A stretch of DNA of 25,506 nucleotides, from the NCBI GenBank assembly GCA_048941265.1, contig JBHLNT010000053.1:1-25506 (forward strand), read 5' to 3'. Source of the stretch: Promethearchaeota archaeon. GTDB lineage: Archaea; Asgardarchaeota; Lokiarchaeia; Sigyniarchaeales; SOKP01. Every line of letters begins with the position of its first letter. Positions within the stretch are counted from its first letter, which is position 1. Made by a program: the position numbers and the translations under genes. The notes under the pieces were generated by a model. The model did not search any database. It saw only the letters and a list, made by a program, of their open reading frames with translations, and was not told where the DNA came from. Of this stretch, positions 2,932 through 25,072 are shown piece after piece.

Positions 2932-4329
2932 TTAACGGTAGATACCTAAATCCTTGAGTTTTTTCACTAAAGCTTCTTTTTCTGCTCCTTCAAGTGTATA
3001 GTATTTTTTAAATATAAATCCCATAACAATCATAAGAATTCCCGGAATTAATGCCGCATGGATTCGTATACCCCATATTGCTAAGGGAGTTTGGATTGCA
3101 TAAGGATCGGTATTATATGCCGTCATAAAATGAATTAACGGAATGACGATCCCAACTACCAGAAAGGCCACTCTGAAGAAAAAGGTTCTTATCCCCACCA
3201 ATAGTGCATCAACCCGCTTTTCCATCTTACTAGCGACCTCGTCATATGTATCTGAAGCCACAGGCATGAGCATCGTAACATTACCGATAGCGACCATTGA
3301 GTAAATTGCCCAAAAAATGGTATGGAAAATAATTTCTGTCGTGAATAGAAAGGGTAGTAAGCAGAAACCACTGAGTATATAGGTTATAGCGTAGCATTTT
3401 TTGAATCCATATTTACGGGCATAATTTGACCAAAAGGGTATCATTAATAGCCCAGCTATAGTACCTACTAGTGTGGGGATCAATCCATATACGTAAGGGA
3501 CTCTATACACATCTTTATAAAGATATATAGTTGAAACAGCCATTAAGGTGCTTGCTGTTATTGCAATTGTGTATCCACTTAAAGATATAGCAAAATTTCT
3601 TGTTGTAAGTGCTTCTTTCGCTGCTTTAAAAAAGCCTACTTTTTCGGCTTTCTCATAAGATCTAATAAACATTTGTTTCATCTCTGGTGATTCCCTTATG
3701 CCAGTAAAGACAATAATCCCGCAAATACCTAGAATTATTATCATAAGGAGAGCCCATCTCACAAAACTACTTGGATCTCCGTATACGATAGTTATACTCC
3801 CGATAACCGCCATGATGGTGATAAGCACATACATTAAAATAGTTGCAATCGCAAAAGCTCTTCTCCGCTCATATTCGGAAGGGAATTGGTTAGTAAAGCC
3901 CCCATACACGTGATCGTTATAGATAGAGAAAAAAGTATCGAATAGACAAGTTATGATGATAAACCATAAAAATATGATCATTGCCCCCATACCTTGAGGG
4001 GGAATCCATATTATATAGAATAAAATTAACACCGGGAACGTGGTGATAACTACCCAAGGAGCGCGCAATCCATATTTTTTAGTCCATTTTAAGGGCTTAT
4101 CCGTAAGATAGCCTAAGAGCGGATCATTGACCATGTTCCAAATAGCAAATATGATAAATGCTATGCTAAGATAGAGGGCAGGGAGCCCAATTTCGACCTC
4201 ATAAAAATAAAAAAGATTTGCCAAGCCAAAACCGAGTAAATAATTTATAAATACATAGCCAATACCATAAGCTGCCATTTTCCATGTTGATGCAATTTCC
4301 CATTGACTCAGATCTTCTTCAATTGCCAT
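2932..4329 (-). CDS. MFS transporter, glycoside-pentoside-hexuronide (GPH/MelB-like) family
   Basis: WNMVNDPLLGYLTD, G.RAPW and D..DE...R motifs, with about 12 hydrophobic segments. SD GGAGA 6 nt before the ATG. Confidence 0.93.
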   Translation of the reverse strand: MAIEEDLSQWEIASTWKMAAYGIGYVFINYLLGFGLANLFYFYEVEIGLPALYLSIAFIIFAIWNMVNDPLLGYLTDKPLKWTKKYGLRAPWVVITTFPVLILFYIIWIPPQGMGAMIIFLWFIIITCLFDTFFSIYNDHVYGGFTNQFPSEYERRRAFAIATILMYVLITIMAVIGSITIVYGDPSSFVRWALLMIIILGICGIIVFTGIRESPEMKQMFIRSYEKAEKVGFFKAAKEALTTRNFAISLSGYTIAITASTLMAVSTIYLYKDVYRVPYVYGLIPTLVGTIAGLLMIPFWSNYARKYGFKKCYAITYILSGFCLLPFLFTTEIIFHTIFWAIYSMVAIGNVTMLMPVASDTYDEVASKMEKRVDALLVGIRTFFFRVAFLVVGIVIPLIHFMTAYNTDPYAIQTPLAIWGIRIHAALIPGILMIVMGFIFKKYYTLEGAEKEALVKKLKDLGIYR

Positions 4330-6358: not shown

Positions 6359-8134
6359 ATGAGAGCAATTTTGATATGGTTTGATACACTAAATAGGCGA
6401 TTTTTACCGCCTTATAGTAATGATTGGGTTCATGCTCCTAATTTTAAGAGACTTGCCGAGAAATCTGTTATTTTTGATAATCACTATGCGGGCAGTCTTC
6501 CATGTATGCCAGCGAGAAGAGAACTCCATACGGGTAGATATAATTTCTTACATAGAAGTTGGGGACCAATTGAACCGTTTGATGATTCTATGCCAGAAAT
6601 TTTAAAAAATAAAGGAATTTATACTCATTTAGTAAGCGACCACTATCATTACTGGGAAGATGGTGGATGTACTTATCATCCGCGATATAGCACATGGGAA
6701 ATCATTCGTGGGCATGAAGGGGACTTGTGGAAAGGTGAAGTTAAAGATCCAAAAATTCCTGAGCATATAGAAAATATGAGAGAAAATACATCTATTTGGC
6801 GACAAGATTGGGTCAATCGGAAATACATGCAAAAAGAGGAGGATCAACCTCAAGCCATAACGTTCAGAAAAGGCTTAGAATTTATTAACACTAATTATAT
6901 GGAAGATAATTGGTTCCTACAGATTGAAACATTTGATCCCCATGAACCTTTTTACACCCAACAAAAATACAAGGATTTCTATAAGCACGATTATAACGGC
7001 CCCCATTTTGATTGGCCAAATTATTCATTAGTCAGTGAAACTCCTGATCAAGTAAATCATTGTCGTATGGAATACGCAGCATCAGTAAGTATGTGTGATG
7101 AGTATTTAGGCAAAATTTTGGATATAATGGATGAAAAAGATATGTGGAAAAATACAATGTTGATTGTTTCTACTGATCATGGTTTTCTTTTGAGCGAAAA
7201 GGATTTATGGGGCAAAGCAATATTCCCGCTCTATAATGAAATTGCACATATACCCTTATTTATCTGGGATCCACGATCAGGAAAGAAGAATGTAAGAAGA
7301 AACGCTCTTACACAAACTATTGATTTAGCACCAACTTTACTTGAATATTTTGGCATTAAACGTCCAAAAATTATGCAAGGTAAAGTTTTAAAGGAGACAA
7401 TTAATTCAGATAGCGGAGTTAGGAAAACAGCTCTTTTTGGCTACCATGGAGCTGCTGTGAATATAACGGATGGGAGATATATATATATGAGAGGTCCTGG
7501 AAATCCTATGAATCAACCATGTTATAATTATACTCTTATGCCAACACATATGAATAGGTTATTTACAATAAATGAATTAAAAACTCTGGAGCTAGCAGAA
7601 CCCTTTACTTTTACTAAAGGTTGTAAAACTATGAAGATTAAGGCAAGAGAATATTCAGGTAACACATATATTTATGGGACTATGCTTTTTGATCTTCAGA
7701 ATGATCCTAATCAAGAAAACCCTATCACAGACCAAGAAGTTGAAAAACGAATGATTGAACTTCTAAGAGATGAATTGAAGAAAAGTGATGCTCCTCTTGA
7801 GCAGTATGAACGTCTTGGCATACTTATTGATGGAGATATTTTAGACGAGCATCTAAGATTAGAAGAGGTTTATACTGGTATTAGGGAAAAAATTGGCAAT
7901 ACCGAGATATCGTGGCGAAATAAAGGAAGAAGTATGTATTATTTCATTTTAAGATTTACTCCTGAACATTTACGTAACCAGGTCATTCAATTATTTGAAA
8001 GAACTATTAATCAAAAAAATCTTAAAGAATTAGATGAAGATTTCATATTAGAGACAATTAGGAATTTTATACCAGAAGGTCTAAGAAGTCCTTTAGAATA
8101 TATTGTTCCACTTGTGAAAAACAAGGCAAAATAA
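6359..8134 (+). CDS. Cys-type formylglycine-dependent sulfatase with a ~100 aa C-terminal extension
   Basis: N-terminal metal-binding FD, CMPARRELHTGR (CxPxR), FDPHEPF, STDHG, HIPLFI and LFDLQNDP. SD GGAGA upstream. No signal peptide. Confidence 0.93.
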   Translation: MRAILIWFDTLNRRFLPPYSNDWVHAPNFKRLAEKSVIFDNHYAGSLPCMPARRELHTGRYNFLHRSWGPIEPFDDSMPEILKNKGIYTHLVSDHYHYWEDGGCTYHPRYSTWEIIRGHEGDLWKGEVKDPKIPEHIENMRENTSIWRQDWVNRKYMQKEEDQPQAITFRKGLEFINTNYMEDNWFLQIETFDPHEPFYTQQKYKDFYKHDYNGPHFDWPNYSLVSETPDQVNHCRMEYAASVSMCDEYLGKILDIMDEKDMWKNTMLIVSTDHGFLLSEKDLWGKAIFPLYNEIAHIPLFIWDPRSGKKNVRRNALTQTIDLAPTLLEYFGIKRPKIMQGKVLKETINSDSGVRKTALFGYHGAAVNITDGRYIYMRGPGNPMNQPCYNYTLMPTHMNRLFTINELKTLELAEPFTFTKGCKTMKIKAREYSGNTYIYGTMLFDLQNDPNQENPITDQEVEKRMIELLRDELKKSDAPLEQYERLGILIDGDILDEHLRLEEVYTGIREKIGNTEISWRNKGRSMYYFILRFTPEHLRNQVIQLFERTINQKNLKELDEDFILETIRNFIPEGLRSPLEYIVPLVKNKAK

Positions 8135-9519: not shown

Positions 9520-10929
9520 ATGAAAGAAGAGAATGAAATTGATTTATCAGAATGGGAGCAAGCATCTACAAAAAAAATGATTCACTATTCTTTTGGCTTC
9601 CTTCTTATTTATTTTATGGGTGCTCAATTTAATACTTATGTTTTTTACTATTATGAGGTAGAGGTTGGTTTACCTGTTGCATTATTAGGACTTGCTTTTG
9701 TAATATTTGCGTTATGGAATATGATCAATGATCCACTCGTTGGGTATCTTACTGATAGACCTTTTCATTGGACTAAAAAATGGGGATGGAGGTTTCCATG
9801 GATTATAATAGCAATCATACCATATCTTTTATGTTGGTTTTTTCTTTTTGCAGTCCCTGAGGTTATAATCGATCAAACAGACCCATGGCCTCTTTTTTGG
9901 TATTTTGTAATTATAGCATGCTTATTTGACACTTTTTATTCCCTTTATTCTACGCATGTTAATGCGGGATATACGATTCATTTTCGTACAGATGCAGAAC
10001 GCAGGAAAGCAAGTGCGATAACACTTGCAGTTCCTCGTATCTTTATGGTTATGATGGGTTTTACAGTACCCTATTTTTATGTATACGGAGATAGGAGTTC
10101 TATGATTTTCGCACAAAGTTTGATAATTTTTATATTAATAATCTGTATCCTCATTTTCATACCTGGTATACGTGAATCTGAGGTTATTAAAGAACGTTTC
10201 CTTCGAGGTTATGCGTCTACAGGAAAACTATCATTCTTTAATACAATGGAAACTGCCTTTAAACAGAGGAATTTTGTTTCTGCACTTTTGGTGTTTATGC
10301 TATTGAGTTTAGCGGGGATTTTAAATACAGCATCAGGAGTCTATTTCATGAAAGATGTTTTAAGATTACCTCTATATAACGCTATTTTTGTCGGATTAGC
10401 AACATTTATAGGTTTTATGCTGTTTATCCCATTTTGGGCGAATACAGTTAGGAGAATTGGGCATGTAAAAACAATGAAATTAAGTCTAATATTAATTGCT
10501 TTTGCATATCTCCCTGCATTGTGGATAACAACCTTACTTGAAGCCATAATATATGCATTTTTAGCCGGTTTTATTGCTGGTGCCTTTTGGATTACATTAG
10601 GACCAATTACTGCTGATGTTAATGATGAGAATACTGTTACTATAGGGAAGCATCAAGAAGGTGCACTTGCTGGAATTAGGACATTTTTCTTTAGATTTGC
10701 CCTCATCTTCCAAGCCGTCATTTTTACTGTAGTGCACATTAATACAGGATACAATCCTAACCCTAAAGCCATACAAACACCTCTAGCTGTATGGGGTATA
10801 AGAATTCACATGGGATTGATTCCAGCTATTTTAGCTATTTTAGCATTCATTATTATGATGCGGTGGTACGATCTAGAAGGAGAAAAAAAAATTTTAATTA
10901 AACAGAAGTTAAAAGATATGGGTCTTTAA
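9520..10929 (+). CDS. MFS transporter, GPH/MelB-like family, close paralogue of 2932..4329
   Basis: WNMINDPLVGYLTD. Shares DLS.WE.AST.KM, YEVE.GLP, GIRTFFFR.A, AIQTPLA.WGIRIH and KLKD.G with the 2932 gene. Confidence 0.93.
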   Translation: MKEENEIDLSEWEQASTKKMIHYSFGFLLIYFMGAQFNTYVFYYYEVEVGLPVALLGLAFVIFALWNMINDPLVGYLTDRPFHWTKKWGWRFPWIIIAIIPYLLCWFFLFAVPEVIIDQTDPWPLFWYFVIIACLFDTFYSLYSTHVNAGYTIHFRTDAERRKASAITLAVPRIFMVMMGFTVPYFYVYGDRSSMIFAQSLIIFILIICILIFIPGIRESEVIKERFLRGYASTGKLSFFNTMETAFKQRNFVSALLVFMLLSLAGILNTASGVYFMKDVLRLPLYNAIFVGLATFIGFMLFIPFWANTVRRIGHVKTMKLSLILIAFAYLPALWITTLLEAIIYAFLAGFIAGAFWITLGPITADVNDENTVTIGKHQEGALAGIRTFFFRFALIFQAVIFTVVHINTGYNPNPKAIQTPLAVWGIRIHMGLIPAILAILAFIIMMRWYDLEGEKKILIKQKLKDMGL

Positions 10930-10995
10930 GCAAATTTTAGCCACATATTCAAGTTTCTTCTTTTTAAACTTTTTTATTTAATGCAATATTAACTA

Positions 10996-11013
10996 TAGAA
11001 ATCTTTTTTAGAA
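10996..11013 (+). promoter_or_regulatory. Second copy of the promoter/operator-like motif, TAGAAATCTTTTTTAGAA
   Basis: Matches 9403-9421 and lies about 77 nt upstream of the corrected SDR start. Confidence 0.35.
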
Positions 11014-11089
11014 GAATAAATCCTATTTATTATTGAAAGTGCGATAAATCTTAATGAAATTTCATATATAATTTAATCGGTGATTAATT

Positions 11090-12412
11090 ATAAAAGAGTT
11101 TAAAGATAAGGTTGCAGTTATAACCGGTGGAGGCAGTGGTATAGGACGTGCTTTAGCCCATGCATTCGCTAAACGGGGTATGAAAATTGTAATAGTAGAT
11201 ATAAATCAGGAAGCTCTAAAAAAGGTATCAGATGAAGTAGAAGAAATAGGAACCGAAGTGATATCTTTAGTGGTTGATGTGAGTGATCCTGATCAAGTTA
11301 TTCGTCTCGCAGATGCTGCTTATGAGCGCTTTGGGAAAGTTAACATACTCTGTAATAATGCTGGTGTATCATCAGCCGGTCCAATACAATTTTTAACTCT
11401 AAAAGATTGGGACTGGGTGCTAAGTGTTAATTTATTTGGTGTTATTCATGGTGTAAAGGCATTTTTAGCGCGTATGTTAAAAAGTAAAGAAAACTGTCAC
11501 ATTGTAAATACGGCCTCTTTGGCAGGACTTATATCCGTAGAATCAGGACCATATACCGCTTCAAAATTTGCAGTAGTGGCAATTAGTGAACTATTGAAAC
11601 AGCAATGTTTTAATACTAATGTAAGTGTCTCTGTTCTCTGCCCTGGTTTTGTTGTAACCGAAATTTTAAAAAATATGGAGAAATTCAGGGAGGAAAAACC
11701 TGATTTATTTAAATTAACACCAGATATGCAAGAAATGGCAAAACCTTTTATGGACATTGTTGAAAAATTGTTCTACTCTGGAATGCATCCTGATGTTTTA
11801 GCAGAATTGGTAATTAAAGCAATAGAAAAAGACATTTTCTATATAGTTACTCATCCAGAATTTATCCCAAATATTAAAGCTCGCTTTGAGAATATCTACT
11901 CGGATACGTTAGAGTTACATGGACGAGTTGATAAATATACTGAAAAATTCCAATTATCCAATGAAACTGATTTAATAACCTTTGAACACAAAGTACCTAA
12001 TTTTTCTATTTCCTATCCGAATGATTGGACTCAAGTAAATCTTGTGCCAACTCCTCTCTTACGCCCTATTTTTCTGGCCCTAGGACCTGGTACTGGATTA
12101 TCTTTATTTATTAGCATTTCAAAAAAATCTCAAGATATGCAATTAGAAGATACGCCAAAAAAAATAATCCGTTTTTTAAAATCGGGTGGTAATGAGATTA
12201 AAATAATATCAAGTCAACAATCGAATCTGAAAGATGGTACTCCAGCTAATGAGACTGTAATTGAGTATATGAGATTAGGCTTTACTAAATCCAAGGCTCT
12301 ATGTGTTTCTGTATTTAAAGATAATAAAGTGATTCGTATAATTCTATCATCAATTGCTAACTTTTATAGCGAAGAACTTAAAAAAATTGCCTACTCCATG
12401 GAATTCAAATAA
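11090..12412 (+). CDS. SDR oxidoreductase fused to a C-terminal PsbP/Mog1-like domain; start extended to ATA 11090
   Basis: Upstream of ATG 11180 the frame reads IKEFKDKVAVITGGGSGIGRALAHAFAKRG (Rossmann TGxxxGIG at 11123-11146), bounded by TGA 11081-11083. NNAG and catalytic YTASK are present. The C-terminal region has FSISYPNDW and LKDGTPA. Confidence 0.85.
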   Translation: MKEFKDKVAVITGGGSGIGRALAHAFAKRGMKIVIVDINQEALKKVSDEVEEIGTEVISLVVDVSDPDQVIRLADAAYERFGKVNILCNNAGVSSAGPIQFLTLKDWDWVLSVNLFGVIHGVKAFLARMLKSKENCHIVNTASLAGLISVESGPYTASKFAVVAISELLKQQCFNTNVSVSVLCPGFVVTEILKNMEKFREEKPDLFKLTPDMQEMAKPFMDIVEKLFYSGMHPDVLAELVIKAIEKDIFYIVTHPEFIPNIKARFENIYSDTLELHGRVDKYTEKFQLSNETDLITFEHKVPNFSISYPNDWTQVNLVPTPLLRPIFLALGPGTGLSLFISISKKSQDMQLEDTPKKIIRFLKSGGNEIKIISSQQSNLKDGTPANETVIEYMRLGFTKSKALCVSVFKDNKVIRIILSSIANFYSEELKKIAYSMEFK

Positions 12413-12538: not shown

Positions 12539-13744
12539 TTGAAACCTTTTTCGCTACTGATAAAACCAGCTTCAGCAGATTGTAATTTGAGATGTGAATA
12601 TTGTTTCTATATTGACCATTTAGAGGAAGGAATAAAAGCTCCTCGCATGTCTGATGAAATCTTGGAACTTATGATAAAAAGCTATATGAGCACAAACCAA
12701 AATAACAATTATTCTTTTGGTTGGCAGGGAGGAGAGCCGACAATAATGGGGCTTAAATTTTTTAAACGGGTTGTAGAACTTCAACAAAAATATGGGTCCC
12801 CTGGTGCCGTTGTAAGTAATGGTCTTCAGACTAATGGAACGCTCATCACCGAAGAGATGGCAAAATTTTTTGCTGAATATAAATTTTTACTTGGAGTGAG
12901 CCTTGATGGTCCTGCGTATCTCCATGATTATTATAGGAAAACTATTGGCCAGAAACCGACACATCAATTAGTTCTACAGGGAATTGAAAATTTAAAGAAA
13001 TTTAACGTGGAATTTAATATTTTGATATTAATAAATAATAAAACAGTGAAGAAAGCAACGGAAATTTATCAATATCTCAAAGAGAAAGGTTTTTATTATC
13101 ATCAATATATACCCTGTGTCGAATATGATGAAAATAATAAACCCCATCCTTATTCAATTACCGGAGCAGAATGGGGTGCCTTCCTATGTGAGATTTTTGA
13201 TCAATGGATAAAAGAAGATGTTTATAGAGTATCAATTCGATTATTTGATTCGGTTTTAGAATATTTAATATATGGGAGATATAACGTTTGTGTTATGAAC
13301 AAGGATTGTTGTCAATATTTTGTGGTTGAGTATGATGGTAGTGTGTATCCCTGTGATTTCTTTGTAAGGGAGGATTTATTTCTCGGAAATTTGAAAACCG
13401 GAACATGGGAAGACTTTATGAACTCTCCAATTTATCATCGTTTTGGACAGCAAAAAGCCATTTGGAATAAAGAATGTAATCTATGTCCATTCTTAGATTT
13501 TTGTCATGGAGACTGTCAAAAAATACGTGTGGGTGGTACAGGATCACCAAAAACTCTAAGCGTATTATGCAACGGTTGGAAAAAATTTTATGCTCATACA
13601 CTACCTCACTTTGAGAATCTGGCAAATAAAATCAAATTTGAAAGGAATATTAGATCGCCAATGCCAGTTAAAGTTAAAAAATATGGACGTAACGATCCTT
13701 GTCCCTGTGGAAGTGGCAAAAAATACAAAAATTGTTGTATTTAG
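12539..13744 (+). CDS. Anaerobic sulfatase-maturating enzyme (radical SAM/SPASM) with C-terminal SEC-C motif
   Basis: IKPASADCNLRCEYCFY, WQGGEP, LQTNG, GVSLDG, SPASM cysteines (CVMNKDCC, YPCD, CNLCPFLDFCHGDC) and GRNDPCPCGSGKKYKNCC. TTG start. Confidence 0.93.
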   Translation: MKPFSLLIKPASADCNLRCEYCFYIDHLEEGIKAPRMSDEILELMIKSYMSTNQNNNYSFGWQGGEPTIMGLKFFKRVVELQQKYGSPGAVVSNGLQTNGTLITEEMAKFFAEYKFLLGVSLDGPAYLHDYYRKTIGQKPTHQLVLQGIENLKKFNVEFNILILINNKTVKKATEIYQYLKEKGFYYHQYIPCVEYDENNKPHPYSITGAEWGAFLCEIFDQWIKEDVYRVSIRLFDSVLEYLIYGRYNVCVMNKDCCQYFVVEYDGSVYPCDFFVREDLFLGNLKTGTWEDFMNSPIYHRFGQQKAIWNKECNLCPFLDFCHGDCQKIRVGGTGSPKTLSVLCNGWKKFYAHTLPHFENLANKIKFERNIRSPMPVKVKKYGRNDPCPCGSGKKYKNCCI

Positions 13745-17940: not shown

Positions 17941-19191
17941 ATGTCTGAAAAAACTAATAATGAGGATTTGAAAAAGGGAGATGATATTACTCCTGTAAAT
18001 GCACTTAGCACCAGAGGTATTCATTTCGCGAATCCAGTAAAAGATGTATATACCGCTAATTTACCTATCGCTGGATGTGCTTGGATTGAAACAACTGACG
18101 GTGTGGTTTTAATTGATACTTTATTGTCGGTTGGGGCCGGTAAGGAAGTATTTAAGAAAATTAAGGGAAAAATCAAATATATCATTTACTCACATGGTCA
18201 TGGTGATCACGTAGGTGGCGCGGCAGCTTTTCTCGCAGACAATCCAGAAATTATTGCCAGCAAATATCTTCCAGATCGGTTTGAGAAATATGAAATCTTA
18301 GCAACACATAGAGGTCGTATAACTGCTCAACAATTTAATGTGCCAGAAACTGTTCGATCTTTTGATTATGTTTATCCAACCAAGACATTTTTAGGAGAGA
18401 TGACAATTTCTCTTGGAGATAAAACGTTTCAGCTTCATACTGCCCGTGCTGAGACAGATGATGTGGTATGGGTATATGTCCCTGAAATTAAATCCGCTTT
18501 CATTGGCGACCTAATGATTGGACCTGGGCTATTCCCTAATGTAGGCAATCCTTGGAAGCCAACGCGTTTTGCTTTAGATTGGGCAAAAACTTTGGAAGAA
18601 ATTAGAGCTCTTAATCCAGAATATGTTTTTTGTAATGGGGGAAGTATAATGTATAAAGGCAAACGTGCTATAAAAGCCTTAAGTCATAATATAGAGGTTA
18701 TCCGTGATATGCACGATCAAGTGGTAGAGTTTATCAATCAAGATATGCATATTACGGAAATGATTCACGCTGTTAAAGTTCCAGAACATCTTAAGAAGAG
18801 CCCTTTTCTTAAACCCCTTTACTCGAGACCAGAGTTTTTCGTATTTAATGTTTACAGGTGGTATCATGGGTACTTTGACCATAATCCTGCTCATCTTTTA
18901 CCTCGACCTGAAAAGGAAGTATTGAAGGAAATTTATGGGCTAATTGGCAGTTCCGATAAAATTTTAAAGAGAGCAAAAGAACTTTTCAAAAAAAATCAAG
19001 CTCAATTAGCTTTAGAAGTCTTAGATGTTCTTATCCAATCCGAACCAGAAAATATTGATGCAAGAGAGCTGCGAATCGAACTTCTTAAAACGTTAGGAGC
19101 TAATGATGAGTGTCTTATGTCTCGAAATACGTGGTATTATTTTATAAATCAAGATAAAAAGTTTATTCGTTTAATAAAAAGGGGAAAATAA
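17941..19191 (+). CDS. MBL-fold alkyl/aryl-sulfatase-like hydrolase (SdsA1-like, no SCP-2 domain)
   Basis: VLIDT, YSHGHGDHVGG (HxHxDH), AETDD, GDL, FPNVGNP and a dimerisation-domain motif YHGYFDHNPAHL. Confidence 0.82.
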   Translation: MSEKTNNEDLKKGDDITPVNALSTRGIHFANPVKDVYTANLPIAGCAWIETTDGVVLIDTLLSVGAGKEVFKKIKGKIKYIIYSHGHGDHVGGAAAFLADNPEIIASKYLPDRFEKYEILATHRGRITAQQFNVPETVRSFDYVYPTKTFLGEMTISLGDKTFQLHTARAETDDVVWVYVPEIKSAFIGDLMIGPGLFPNVGNPWKPTRFALDWAKTLEEIRALNPEYVFCNGGSIMYKGKRAIKALSHNIEVIRDMHDQVVEFINQDMHITEMIHAVKVPEHLKKSPFLKPLYSRPEFFVFNVYRWYHGYFDHNPAHLLPRPEKEVLKEIYGLIGSSDKILKRAKELFKKNQAQLALEVLDVLIQSEPENIDARELRIELLKTLGANDECLMSRNTWYYFINQDKKFIRLIKRGK

Positions 19192-23751: not shown

Positions 23752-24357
23752 ATGAAACTATATAGCTTGGGTGTGAGGGGGGGATTAACAAAAATCAATA
23801 AAATTGCTTTTAATGAAAATCAAGTTTACCTAATTGATGACTTTAAAACTCTTTATTTATGGATTGGGCAAAAAGTACCCGAGAAAAGAAAAGAGTTTTG
23901 CGTGAAAAAAGTCAATAGTCTAAATGAAAGAAGAAAACCTCCCTCCAATATACAAATACTAACTCAAAACAAAGAATATGGTTCATTTCTCGCGATTATG
24001 GATCTTTTGAAAAAAGGCTTAAAACAAAAGATCTCTGCCGAAAGAAGACCTGAATTAGAAATTCAATATGAAGATACAATTGAATTAATAGAGGCGGGAA
24101 TCGATCCAGATTTAGAAGGTGAAATTACTATTGCAGCTCATGATCTCTTAAAAGAAAAAAAATCCTATGAAGATTTATGTAGGCAACTTGCTGAGATACA
24201 ATTAAATCTTTTAAAAGAGAAGGGTAAAGCCACGAAAAAAGAACTGGAAAAAAAAGCAGAAGATATCCACAAATCCTCATCCACTTACGAAGAACTATGC
24301 TGGTTAATTGCTGAATTAAATCTTTTGGCAGAAAAGAAGTCTTTTAAAAAAGGTTAG
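23752..24357 (+). CDS. Single gelsolin domain plus helical C-terminal domain (Asgard 1DGelX-like)
   Basis: FNENQVYLIDD..TLYLWIGQK...EKRK and QNKE..F follow the gelsolin-fold pattern. The C-terminus has a duplicated YE(D/E)LC..(L/I)AE..L helix. SD GGAGA 6 nt upstream. Confidence 0.8.
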   Translation: MKLYSLGVRGGLTKINKIAFNENQVYLIDDFKTLYLWIGQKVPEKRKEFCVKKVNSLNERRKPPSNIQILTQNKEYGSFLAIMDLLKKGLKQKISAERRPELEIQYEDTIELIEAGIDPDLEGEITIAAHDLLKEKKSYEDLCRQLAEIQLNLLKEKGKATKKELEKKAEDIHKSSSTYEELCWLIAELNLLAEKKSFKKG

Positions 24358-24445: not shown

Positions 24446-25072
24446 ATTTCTCAAAGTAAAGTTAGGTTAAATTGGAATATGAAAGGAGTTTGGTATGAAG
24501 CATGTGCATCAGAAGGACATTGCTCCTTTTATTTTGGCAGAGATAGAGAAGAGCCTTGTAAGTCATTTCAATTATTTAAAATTGAAGAGGGTAAGATAGG
24601 TGAAGTTGATATTAGCGGCGTTTTAGCGATTAATGTAGTCGATATATATTCAAACAAGGCTGCTGAATTATTAGCAAAAGGGGGAGAAGGAGGCTTATAT
24701 ATAAGTGATACTACTACAGAAGAACAAAGAAAATATTTAGAACCATTTTTCTCCAATAATGTGCCGGGAGGATTGATATTGCGAAAAATATTAGGAACCA
24801 GATATGTGGACATAAAATTAACCCAAGAAGATAAGACTTATCATATCACGATGCCCTATGGAGAGATGAAATCAACACTGACAACGGGCGGCGATGGAAA
24901 GAATCCCCAGCGTTTGGAAAACTCTCTATTCGGTGTGTTTTTCAAGGATATAAAAATTTGTAATACACACTTCTGGAAGTACAACGACTTCGGTAAGAAT
25001 TGGGAATTTGTTAATAGAAGCGGAACCATTGCCGATTTTGATCTCCAGGGCAAAGCGAGAATGGCAATTTGA
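24446..25072 (+). CDS. DUF1326 family protein; start probably ATT 24446 (ORF track uses ATG 24479)
   Basis: W.MKGVWYEAC, FKIEEG..GEVDISG, LYISD..TEEQR and the terminal W.F..RSG..ADF resemble DUF1326. GAGGTGA SD at 24433-24439. Confidence 0.7.
   Translation: MSQSKVRLNWNMKGVWYEACASEGHCSFYFGRDREEPCKSFQLFKIEEGKIGEVDISGVLAINVVDIYSNKAAELLAKGGEGGLYISDTTTEEQRKYLEPFFSNNVPGGLILRKILGTRYVDIKLTQEDKTYHITMPYGEMKSTLTTGGDGKNPQRLENSLFGVFFKDIKICNTHFWKYNDFGKNWEFVNRSGTIADFDLQGKARMAI

Follow-up and report, generated by a model that had tools for sequence, protein, structure and literature searches.

The gene considered here raises the question of where translation begins when no ATG, GTG or TTG stands ahead of the codons for a conserved amino terminus. 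It encodes an oxidoreductase of the short-chain dehydrogenase/reductase (SDR) family and lies on contig JBHLNT010000053.1 (assembly GCA_048941265.1) of a Promethearchaeota archaeon, a member of the Asgard class Lokiarchaeia; the stretch analysed, positions 1 to 25,506 of that contig, is referred to below as the window. On computational evidence the SDR gene most probably starts at the ATA at 11090, by near-cognate initiation guided by a Shine-Dalgarno (SD) motif.

Start region of the SDR gene and its orthologues

The motif GGTGA ahead of the gene pairs with UCACC of the 16S rRNA 3' end. Its last three letters, TGA, are in the same frame as the long open reading frame (ORF) that follows. After this stop the frame reads TTA ATT ATA AAA GAG TTT AAA GAT AAG GTT GCA GTT, and it continues with ATA ACC GGT GGA GGC AGT GGT ATA GGA, which is the 5' region of an SDR gene. 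The first ATA of the run, at 11090, differs from ATG by one mismatch and stands 6 nt after GGTGA, within the canonical optimum of 5–7 nt, with an in-frame stop two codons before it and the first ATG 30 codons after it. No ATG, GTG or TTG is found in frame between the TGA and the ATG at 11180 in the window sequence, in its ORF list or in the translation. The ORF list gives the SDR ORF only from 11180, and positions 11084–12412 translate without a stop (protein P0001). Since a further in-frame stop, TAA, is present at 11069, read-through of the TGA would be of no help in reaching a start farther upstream.

The protein itself indicates how much would be lost by a start at 11180. P0001 matches the Pfam profile adh_short (PF00106) with an E-value of 5.6e-53 and 179.8 bits (cut-off 26.6), residues 9–200 being aligned to positions 1–192 of the 195 in the profile. 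Because the match begins at profile position 1, a start at 11180 would drop about 24 profile positions and leave the protein without its first beta strand and glycine-rich dinucleotide-binding loop. This loop, of the form TGxxxGxG, is present as TGGGSGIG (residues 14–21) only if translation starts upstream of ATG 11180. The catalytic serine and YxxxK, which form the classical SDR motif, are also found (NTASLAG ... GPYTASKFAV, i.e. Y-T-A-S-K). Taken over the window sequence, the Pfam match and the orthologue alignment, no canonical start is able to give the conserved SDR amino terminus. A preliminary description of the window had claimed that TGGGSGIG lies upstream of the first ATG with no canonical start in between, that ATA follows GGTGA after 6 nt, and that the rest of the ORF is intact, all of which is borne out. 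It had also compared the site with three canonical genes, at 4329 (reverse strand), 6359 and 23752; their spacings do hold (6, 5 and 6 nt before ATG), but the motif there is GGAGA and not GGTGA.

The sequence at the start region was compared with Logan contigs of four sequencing runs aligned to the window: X1, which may be the source of the assembly, X2 from the same study as X1, and X3 and X4 from two other studies. The contigs of all four runs cover 11071–11124 and show zero differences at 11079–11092. X3 contains a strain variant with seven differences in 10900–11195. Among the six that are listed, those at 11125, 11143, 11164 and 11170 are synonymous and fall on third positions, and the other two jointly turn one Ala codon to Ser. 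In X3, positions 11190 and 11427 are also joined in a single contig (depth 5.9, shorter side 25 letters) that skips 236 bases and probably reflects a chimera or a paralogue present in the metagenome.

Database records of the protein mostly begin too late. Among the 13 closest entries (P0003–P0015, 64–89% identity), eleven begin at the Met equivalent to 11180 and P0014 at a later Met, while P0004 (78% identity), beginning MINIIKEF, is the sole full-length entry; twelve of the 13 are therefore without the NAD-binding loop. The window protein's own entry (P0002, 430 aa) begins MTGGGSG and is called from another ATA, at 11120–11122, which cuts off the first beta strand. Evidently the annotation pipeline allowed ATA, yet picked a site inside conserved coding sequence.

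A search of the genomes of 40 relatives returned no SDR orthologue above 53% identity, and an order-wide genome search returned one, in G104, at 71%. The matches listed from a wider contig search were nearly all bacterial SDRs (39–49% identity), plus one Asgard locus of a deep clade (L117). The orthologue set for DNA comparison consists of L021 (71% identity) and L037–L040 (66–70%), which with the window (L001) make six sequences. Four of the five orthologues read GGTGA ATA ATT ATA AAR GAA TTT. The fifth, L040, reads TAG GGG TGG AAA AAT ATA AAA GAA TTT, with its TAG three codons further upstream in place of the TGA inside the SD. None of the five has a canonical start before the Rossmann motif, and ATA 6 nt after GGTGA or GGTGG is the sole start candidate common to all six sequences. 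A deeper clade of the fusion protein (about 50% identity; L022–L036, L041–L052 and L117) starts with ATG (or TTG) ATA AAA GAT TTT, that is, MIKDF.

The codons between the ATA and the first ATG evolve as coding sequence. In the 15 pairwise comparisons of the six sequences, codons 2–30 differ at codon positions 1, 2 and 3 in 10, 15 and 164 cases, respectively. Variation is synonymous only in 19 of the 31 codon columns, and the ATA is kept in all six sequences. Selection on the stretch upstream of the first ATG is therefore purifying, which implies that this stretch is translated. The window and L037–L040 have an intact ORF, and that of L021 is interrupted by the end of the contig; neither relaxed selection nor unshared disruptions, the marks of a pseudogene, were seen.

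Probable near-cognate starts in the genome and the family

The genome to which the window belongs (G000; 5.01 Mb in 361 contigs, 30.5% GC) was scanned by script for SD motifs ahead of non-canonical codons. In stop-to-stop ORFs of at least 150 codons, the scan took in every codon that follows the upstream stop and precedes the first ATG, GTG or TTG by 10 codons or more (11,204 codons), an SD being defined as a 5-mer of GGAGGTGA at a normalised spacing of 4–8. Genome-wide, such 5-mers are enriched 6–10 fold at -18 to -3 of first ATGs, GGTGA is enriched 8.6-fold upstream of first ATGs, and the spacing of GTGA peaks at 5–7.

The scan yielded 134 distinct SD-led sites. Among the one-mismatch codons, an SD was found at ATT in 33 of 858 cases, at ATA in 20 of 598, at ATC in 4 of 191, at CTG in 5 of 47 and at ACG in 4 of 44. 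Other codons gave 2/1008 (AAA), 3/754 (AAT), 4/806 (TTT), 5/710 (TTA) and 5/488 (TAT). Taken together, the codons ATT, ATA and ATC (AUH below) carry an SD at 57/1647 positions against 68/9466 for the other 56 codons (odds ratio (OR) 5.0, p = 1.4e-16), and CTG and ACG at 9/91 (OR 15, p = 4e-8). At a control spacing of 12–20 there is no AUH enrichment (29/1647 vs 222/9466). ATA is the second commonest non-canonical SD-led codon, behind ATT. This five-fold enrichment of AUH at SD distance is the opposite of what random loss of starts, the expectation set against the ATA start in the preliminary description, would produce. The same SD criterion applied to first canonical starts selects 171 ATG, 46 TTG and 19 GTG. 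When SDs are taken as 4-mers, AUH sites exceed the background by about 70–75 and CTG or ACG sites by 13–16. By a rough count, starts at AUU, AUA, AUC, CUG and ACG would cover 60–90 detectable genes, or about a tenth of the SD-led genes.

Two properties of the encoded proteins bear on whether these sites are real amino termini. Residue 2 is S, T, P, A or G in 27 of 57 cases after AUH with an SD and in 78 of 171 after ATG with an SD; the corresponding counts are 335 of 1590 after AUH without an SD and 11 of 68 after other codons with an SD. The 63 candidate sites outside the window's contig, minus two adjacent duplicates, gave 61 proteins for a Pfam scan. In 25 of them (24 when an internal ATT of a polyprenyl synthase is left out) a domain begins upstream of the first canonical codon, and many of these matches begin at profile position 1–3, a few residues past the proposed start. 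The domains concerned include Ras (seven cases), ATP-grasp_2 at residue 3, ATP_bind_1 at residue 6, CheR_N at residue 10, ATP-synt_D at residue 12, ABC_tran at residue 21, the TFIIB zinc ribbon at residue 25 and vATP-synt_AC39.

Similar starts are seen in related genomes. For subunit D of the V-ATPase, the codon aligned to the G000 start in 21 loci of the same family (f1) is ATT in ten, ATA in four, ATC in three, ACG in one and ATG in three; in eight of the 21 a stop lies at most three codons upstream with no canonical codon in between. In three loci of families f2 and f4 the codon is ATG. In 11 loci of the succinyl-CoA synthetase beta subunit it is ATT in seven (genera g1, g12 and g13), TTG in two, and ATG and GTG in one f2 genome each. 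G001, of the same genus as G000 (10 contigs, 1.2 Mb sampled), gives 13/353 AUH against 17/2126 (OR 4.7, p = 1e-4). Orthologues of these two genomes swap ATT and ATA, e.g., a gene on contig C299 of G000 starts with ATT (ITEFDPKEKF...) and its counterpart in G001 (L368) with ATA (ITEFEPKEKF...); other orthologues retain ATT in both. Near-cognate start codons thus seem, on these alignments, to be interchangeable. The TFB gene and an ABC transporter gene are also among the candidates in both genomes.

G032, a single-contig genome of the sister family f2, shows no AUH enrichment in the 1.2 of 4.36 Mb sampled (2/291 vs 11/1944), and SD-led ATG starts are equally dense in this sample (45 against 42). 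From these comparisons, the trait looks characteristic of family f1 rather than of the whole order, and derived in one family of it. The preliminary description had pointed to the closest relatives of eukaryotes. The host is indeed an Asgard archaeon, but the direct link to the ancestor of eukaryotes is weakened: the single genome sampled from a sister family does not show the trait, which is thus probably a derived one, of little direct bearing on that ancestor.

The gene for aIF1 (SUI1), an initiation factor, could be placed in 33 of 41 genomes, and 30 of its loci (L428–L457) were examined; in G000 it lies on contig C112 at about 9700–9950 on the reverse strand (L455). In 16 of 18 f1 genomes a stop opens the frame, and one to three codons further on comes ATT or ATC, no canonical codon intervening. 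A conserved GTGA lies 9 nt ahead of this ATT or ATC, and the sequence goes on with AAA GAN GAN GAN ATN TGT, at the zinc knuckle. An in-frame GTG is present in the remaining two f1 genomes, and the corresponding codon of families f2 and f4 is TTG, GTG, ATG or ATA. The aIF1 proteins of G000, G001 and G003 score lowest against the Pfam profile (47–49 bits, as against 50–70 for the other 27 loci); three f1 genomes without an aIF1 locus in the set (G017, G011 and G008) have still lower scores, of 44–47 bits. Stringency of start selection in archaea and eukaryotes is set by aIF1/eIF1 and aIF2/eIF2.

According to the passages available from two papers, aIF1 rejects non-AUG codons, and that of S. solfataricus discriminates against AUU (PMC4705826, PMC6237735). 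An AUU-started aIF1 gene therefore recalls infC, the gene of bacterial IF3, and the eIF1 gene with its weak start context. The arrangement suggests a feedback loop that might hold stringency at a level where AUH starts work.

A motif search of G000 for initiator-like tRNA genes found one with a normal CAU anticodon and three G-C pairs in the anticodon stem. No initiator tRNA with another anticodon was found in G000, whose tRNA set is incomplete. In this metagenome-assembled genome (MAG), which is 91% complete, ARAGORN reports only 10–12 tRNAs, none of them for Met or Ile, and it reports four in the loci examined; the Rfam tRNA model gives 26 matches, many about 100 nt long and with introns. 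The initiator-like gene, on the reverse strand of C212, carries an intron after the CAU anticodon loop. Many tRNA genes are 100–137 nt long and intron-bearing, one seemingly with two introns; they lie on C70, C107, C222, C331, C212, C34, C247, C307, C138, C183, C343 and C154.

Explanations of the SDR start

Non-AUG initiation at the ATA 6 nt after the SD, as the preliminary description had proposed, is supported by the orthologues, by the selection on the upstream codons and by the genome-wide AUH enrichment. In such a mechanism, GGTGA would place the 30S subunit at ATA 11090, and the initiator Met-tRNA, with anticodon CAU, would accept AUA despite the mismatch at the third position, giving (M)KEFKDKVAVITGGGSGIG... 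The same tRNA would presumably read the other near-cognate codons, with Met as the first residue, and the efficiency of initiation would be below that at AUG, offset by the strong SD. The SDR gene would then be one instance of a habit of the genome, the genus and most genera of the family, in which AUU, AUA, AUC, CUG and ACG behind a well-spaced SD would serve as regular start codons.

If near-cognate initiation is accepted, the neighbouring ATT at 11087, only 3 nt after the SD, might be used instead, giving MIKEF... with the length of the MIKDF of the deeper clade. This ATT occupies the ancestral start position (ATG in the ATG ATA AAA GAT TTT of the deeper clade), and ATT is the commonest non-canonical start in the genome scan. 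However, L040 has AAT at this position and retains only the ATA. Moreover, ATG after GGTGA occurs at 2, 0, 0 and 2 sites at spacings of 0–3 against 7–11 at spacings of 4–7, and spacings of 3 nt or less after GGTGA are nearly unused by ATT and ATA as well. Because the 3-nt spacing is so rarely used and L040 carries AAT, ATA 11090 is favoured, and a start at ATT 11087 is unlikely. A start at the GTG inside the SD (11080), followed by a programmed +1 frameshift on TAT AAA AGA into the SDR frame, is very unlikely. A GTG at -10 and the run T-ATA-AAA-G do occur in all six sequences, and the MINIIKEF of P0004 looks as if GTG or ATG were in frame there. The GTG is, however, an automatic consequence of GGTG at this spacing, in the GGGTGG of L040 as elsewhere, and does not discriminate between the two explanations. 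In addition, no SD precedes GTG 11080, AUH starts are also found behind SDs without GTG (GAGGT, GGAGG; 21 sites), the spacers of these GTG-free sites share no slippery motif, and AGA is probably not a rare codon at the GC content of this genome.

Loss of the start, which would leave either a pseudogene or a truncated protein made from ATG 11180 without the NAD-binding loop, agrees with the choice of the equivalent ATG by gene callers in relatives. It is made very improbable by the concentration of differences at third positions in the 29 upstream codons, by an ORF kept intact in six lineages and by an adh_short profile that begins at residue 9. An error of assembly or sequencing, or a very recent G-to-A change of an ATG, had been named in the preliminary description as the alternative to non-AUG initiation; it is contradicted by the identity of the contigs from three studies and by the ATA in the five independent assemblies of the orthologues, and can practically be dismissed.

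Several points nevertheless weigh against initiation at the ATA or against its generality. The support is computational, and no RNA run covering the stretch is listed, the four runs aligned to it being represented by contigs. AUA ranks with the weakest near-cognate codons in those bacterial and eukaryotic systems that have been studied, and ATT 11087, at the position of the ancestral ATG, may be the start instead in five of the six sequences. The design of the scan introduces a bias: GGTGA at a spacing of 6 itself supplies the in-frame TGA, and at a spacing of 5 or 8 its GTG counts as canonical. This distorts the spacing profile, while the contrast between codons is unaffected. With SD 5-mers that contain neither GTG nor TGA (GAGGT, GGAGG) the enrichment is weaker (21/1647 vs 41/9466, OR 3.0, p = 2e-4). 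The candidates include false positives, e.g., the ATA at 11141 inside the SDR gene, behind GGTGGAGG of glycine codons, and the ATT internal to the polyprenyl synthase ORF. In the Pfam scan, 23 of the 61 tests are uninformative, the first domain lying further in, and 13 of the 61 proteins have no match at 1e-5. The related genomes are kin, so that their counts are not independent; they describe the pattern and do not test it. Finally, aIF1 of S. solfataricus rejects AUU in vitro, as stated in a passage of PMC4705826.

Known systems, significance and other features of the window

The AUU start of bacterial infC is a parallel in kind, as a near-cognate AUH codon behind an SD, and here it is the aIF1 gene itself that so starts in most f1 genomes. 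For infC, autoregulation through start-codon stringency is described in the part available of one review (PMC4705826). There are two differences: in E. coli infC is a rare regulatory exception, whereas here dozens of ordinary and housekeeping genes are concerned, and the factor is not IF3 but aIF1, a homologue of eIF1, for which autoregulation is a proposal.

Near-cognate initiation in eukaryotes (at CUG, GUG, UUG, ACG, AUU, AUA and AUC, policed by eIF1 and eIF5) shares with the present case the set of one-mismatch codons and, the host being of an Asgard lineage, homologous factors in aIF1 and aIF2. In eukaryotes, however, scanning and Kozak context select the sites, which for the most part yield minor isoforms or upstream ORFs, whereas the site here would be fixed by the SD and is the sole start of the main ORF. 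Animal mitochondria also use AUA and AUU as routine start codons, but there AUA codes for Met by reassignment and the mRNAs lack an SD. The SDR gene lies behind an SD, and ATA is an ordinary Ile codon inside genes (in GIG and VAVI of the SDR ORF, for example), which implies the standard code.

The only Asgard precedent found in the open-access literature is a remark on the tubulin gene AtubA in a MAG of the Kariarchaeaceae (Heimdallarchaeia), for which the authors proposed a 'rare ATT start codon' further upstream, plausibly spaced from the ribosome-binding site; the text available of that paper (PMC13394414) describes an Asgard gene with too short an annotated amino terminus, as here, but is limited to one gene from another class, offers neither a genome-wide nor a comparative analysis and does not mention ATA. 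Excerpts of reviews give AUG, GUG and UUG as the only archaeal starts and SDs as rare in Lokiarchaea (PMC4705826, PMC7531240, PMC12993045). In ribosome profiling of H. volcanii, about 30% of the putative alternative sites were at near-cognate codons and were set aside, according to the portion available of PMC7261190. A genome-wide account of AUH starts in Asgard or other archaea was not found in the open-access literature, supplements excluded.

By these sequence comparisons, near-cognate initiation is predicted to be lineage-wide and to affect housekeeping genes and the fidelity factor aIF1 itself. We lean, with moderate confidence, towards a clade of the Lokiarchaeia type, at the level of a family, in which start selection would be relaxed, AUU, AUA, AUC, CUG and ACG would be regular, stable and interchangeable starts in about one in ten SD-led genes, and aIF1 would be subject to an infC-like loop. 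The genes involved would include those for V-ATPase subunits, TFB, succinyl-CoA synthetase and many small GTPases, and aIF1, started from AUU or AUC at a conserved, slightly long distance from the SD, would set stringency by feedback.

Start-codon stringency is among the clearest contrasts between initiation of the bacterial and the eukaryotic type. An Asgard clade that routinely accepts these five codons would be a natural experiment on fidelity tuned by initiation factors, of greater value still if the gene of aIF1 is itself wired to stringency, as infC and eIF1 are. There would also be a practical consequence. Standard gene callers would truncate hundreds of proteins per genome in the clade and leave public Asgard sets short at the amino terminus, truncation like that of the SDR being expected in GTPases, TFB and ATPase subunits as well. 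Because callers of the Prodigal type miss such starts, structure predictions, domain counts and phylogenies of the clade's 'eukaryotic signature proteins' may rest on truncated sequences.

The features of the SDR gene and its surroundings are collected in Table 1.

Table 1. Positions of features at the SDR start and of context genes in the window
Feature	Position	Strand	Remarks
Upstream box AATGAAATTT	11053..11062	+	Aligned by eye; AATATG(G)AAATTT in 4 orthologues (L021, L037–L039)
SD-type motif GGTGA	11079..11083	+	6 nt before ATA; GGTGA or GGGTGG in 6/6 orthologues
Out-of-frame GTG inside SD	11080..11082	+	Heads 7-codon ORF; GTG at -10 in 6/6
In-frame TGA inside SD, closing the frame upstream	11081..11083	+	Same TGA in L021, L037, L038, L039
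ATT, alternative near-cognate start 3 nt after SD	11087..11089	+	Position homologous to deeper-clade ATG
ATA, proposed near-cognate start codon	11090..11092	+	6/6 orthologues at SD+6; unchanged in contigs of 4 runs
SDR oxidoreductase coding sequence, 440 codons + stop, C-terminal PsbP-like extension	11090..12412	+	Translation, Pfam
Glycine-rich dinucleotide-binding motif TGGGSGIG	11123..11146	+	Conserved in orthologues
First in-frame canonical codon, ATG (Met31 counted from ATA)	11180..11182	+	Start chosen by gene callers in orthologues
Context genes (coordinates given jointly)	902–1435, 6359–8134, 12539–13744, 17941–19191, 23752–24357

The upstream box, which can also be written AAT(AT)G(G)AAATTT, lies about 15–30 nt before the ATA and has an additional CATATATAAT after it in the window; it may belong to the promoter or to the leader. 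A second candidate for a non-canonical start in the window is an ATT at 24446, 6 nt after GAGGTGA, at the head of a forward-strand gene (24446–25072). A stop lies two codons upstream and the first ATG at 24479, and a DUF1326 match from residue 19 fits either start.

The window protein resembles classical SDRs of the adh_short family in its TGxxxGxG loop, NNAG and Ser...YxxxK, and differs from them in carrying some 170 additional residues at the C-terminus, where a weak PsbP-like signal is found (PsbP_2, residues 290–394 of P0001, window 11951–12265; E = 0.0013, 19 bits, below the cut-off). Full-length relatives of this fusion have 427–478 aa and are mostly Asgard records (Promethearchaeota, Lokiarchaeota, Thorarchaeota and Hodarchaeota). 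Directly after the SDR gene lies that of a radical-SAM/SPASM protein of the sulfatase-maturase type, and the window further contains genes for a Ras-family GTPase, a sulfatase, an alkyl sulfatase, three MFS_2 transporters, a GH1 glycosidase, a carboxylesterase and a gelsolin-repeat protein. The SDR may thus belong to a neighbourhood for the use of sulfated sugars or lipids.

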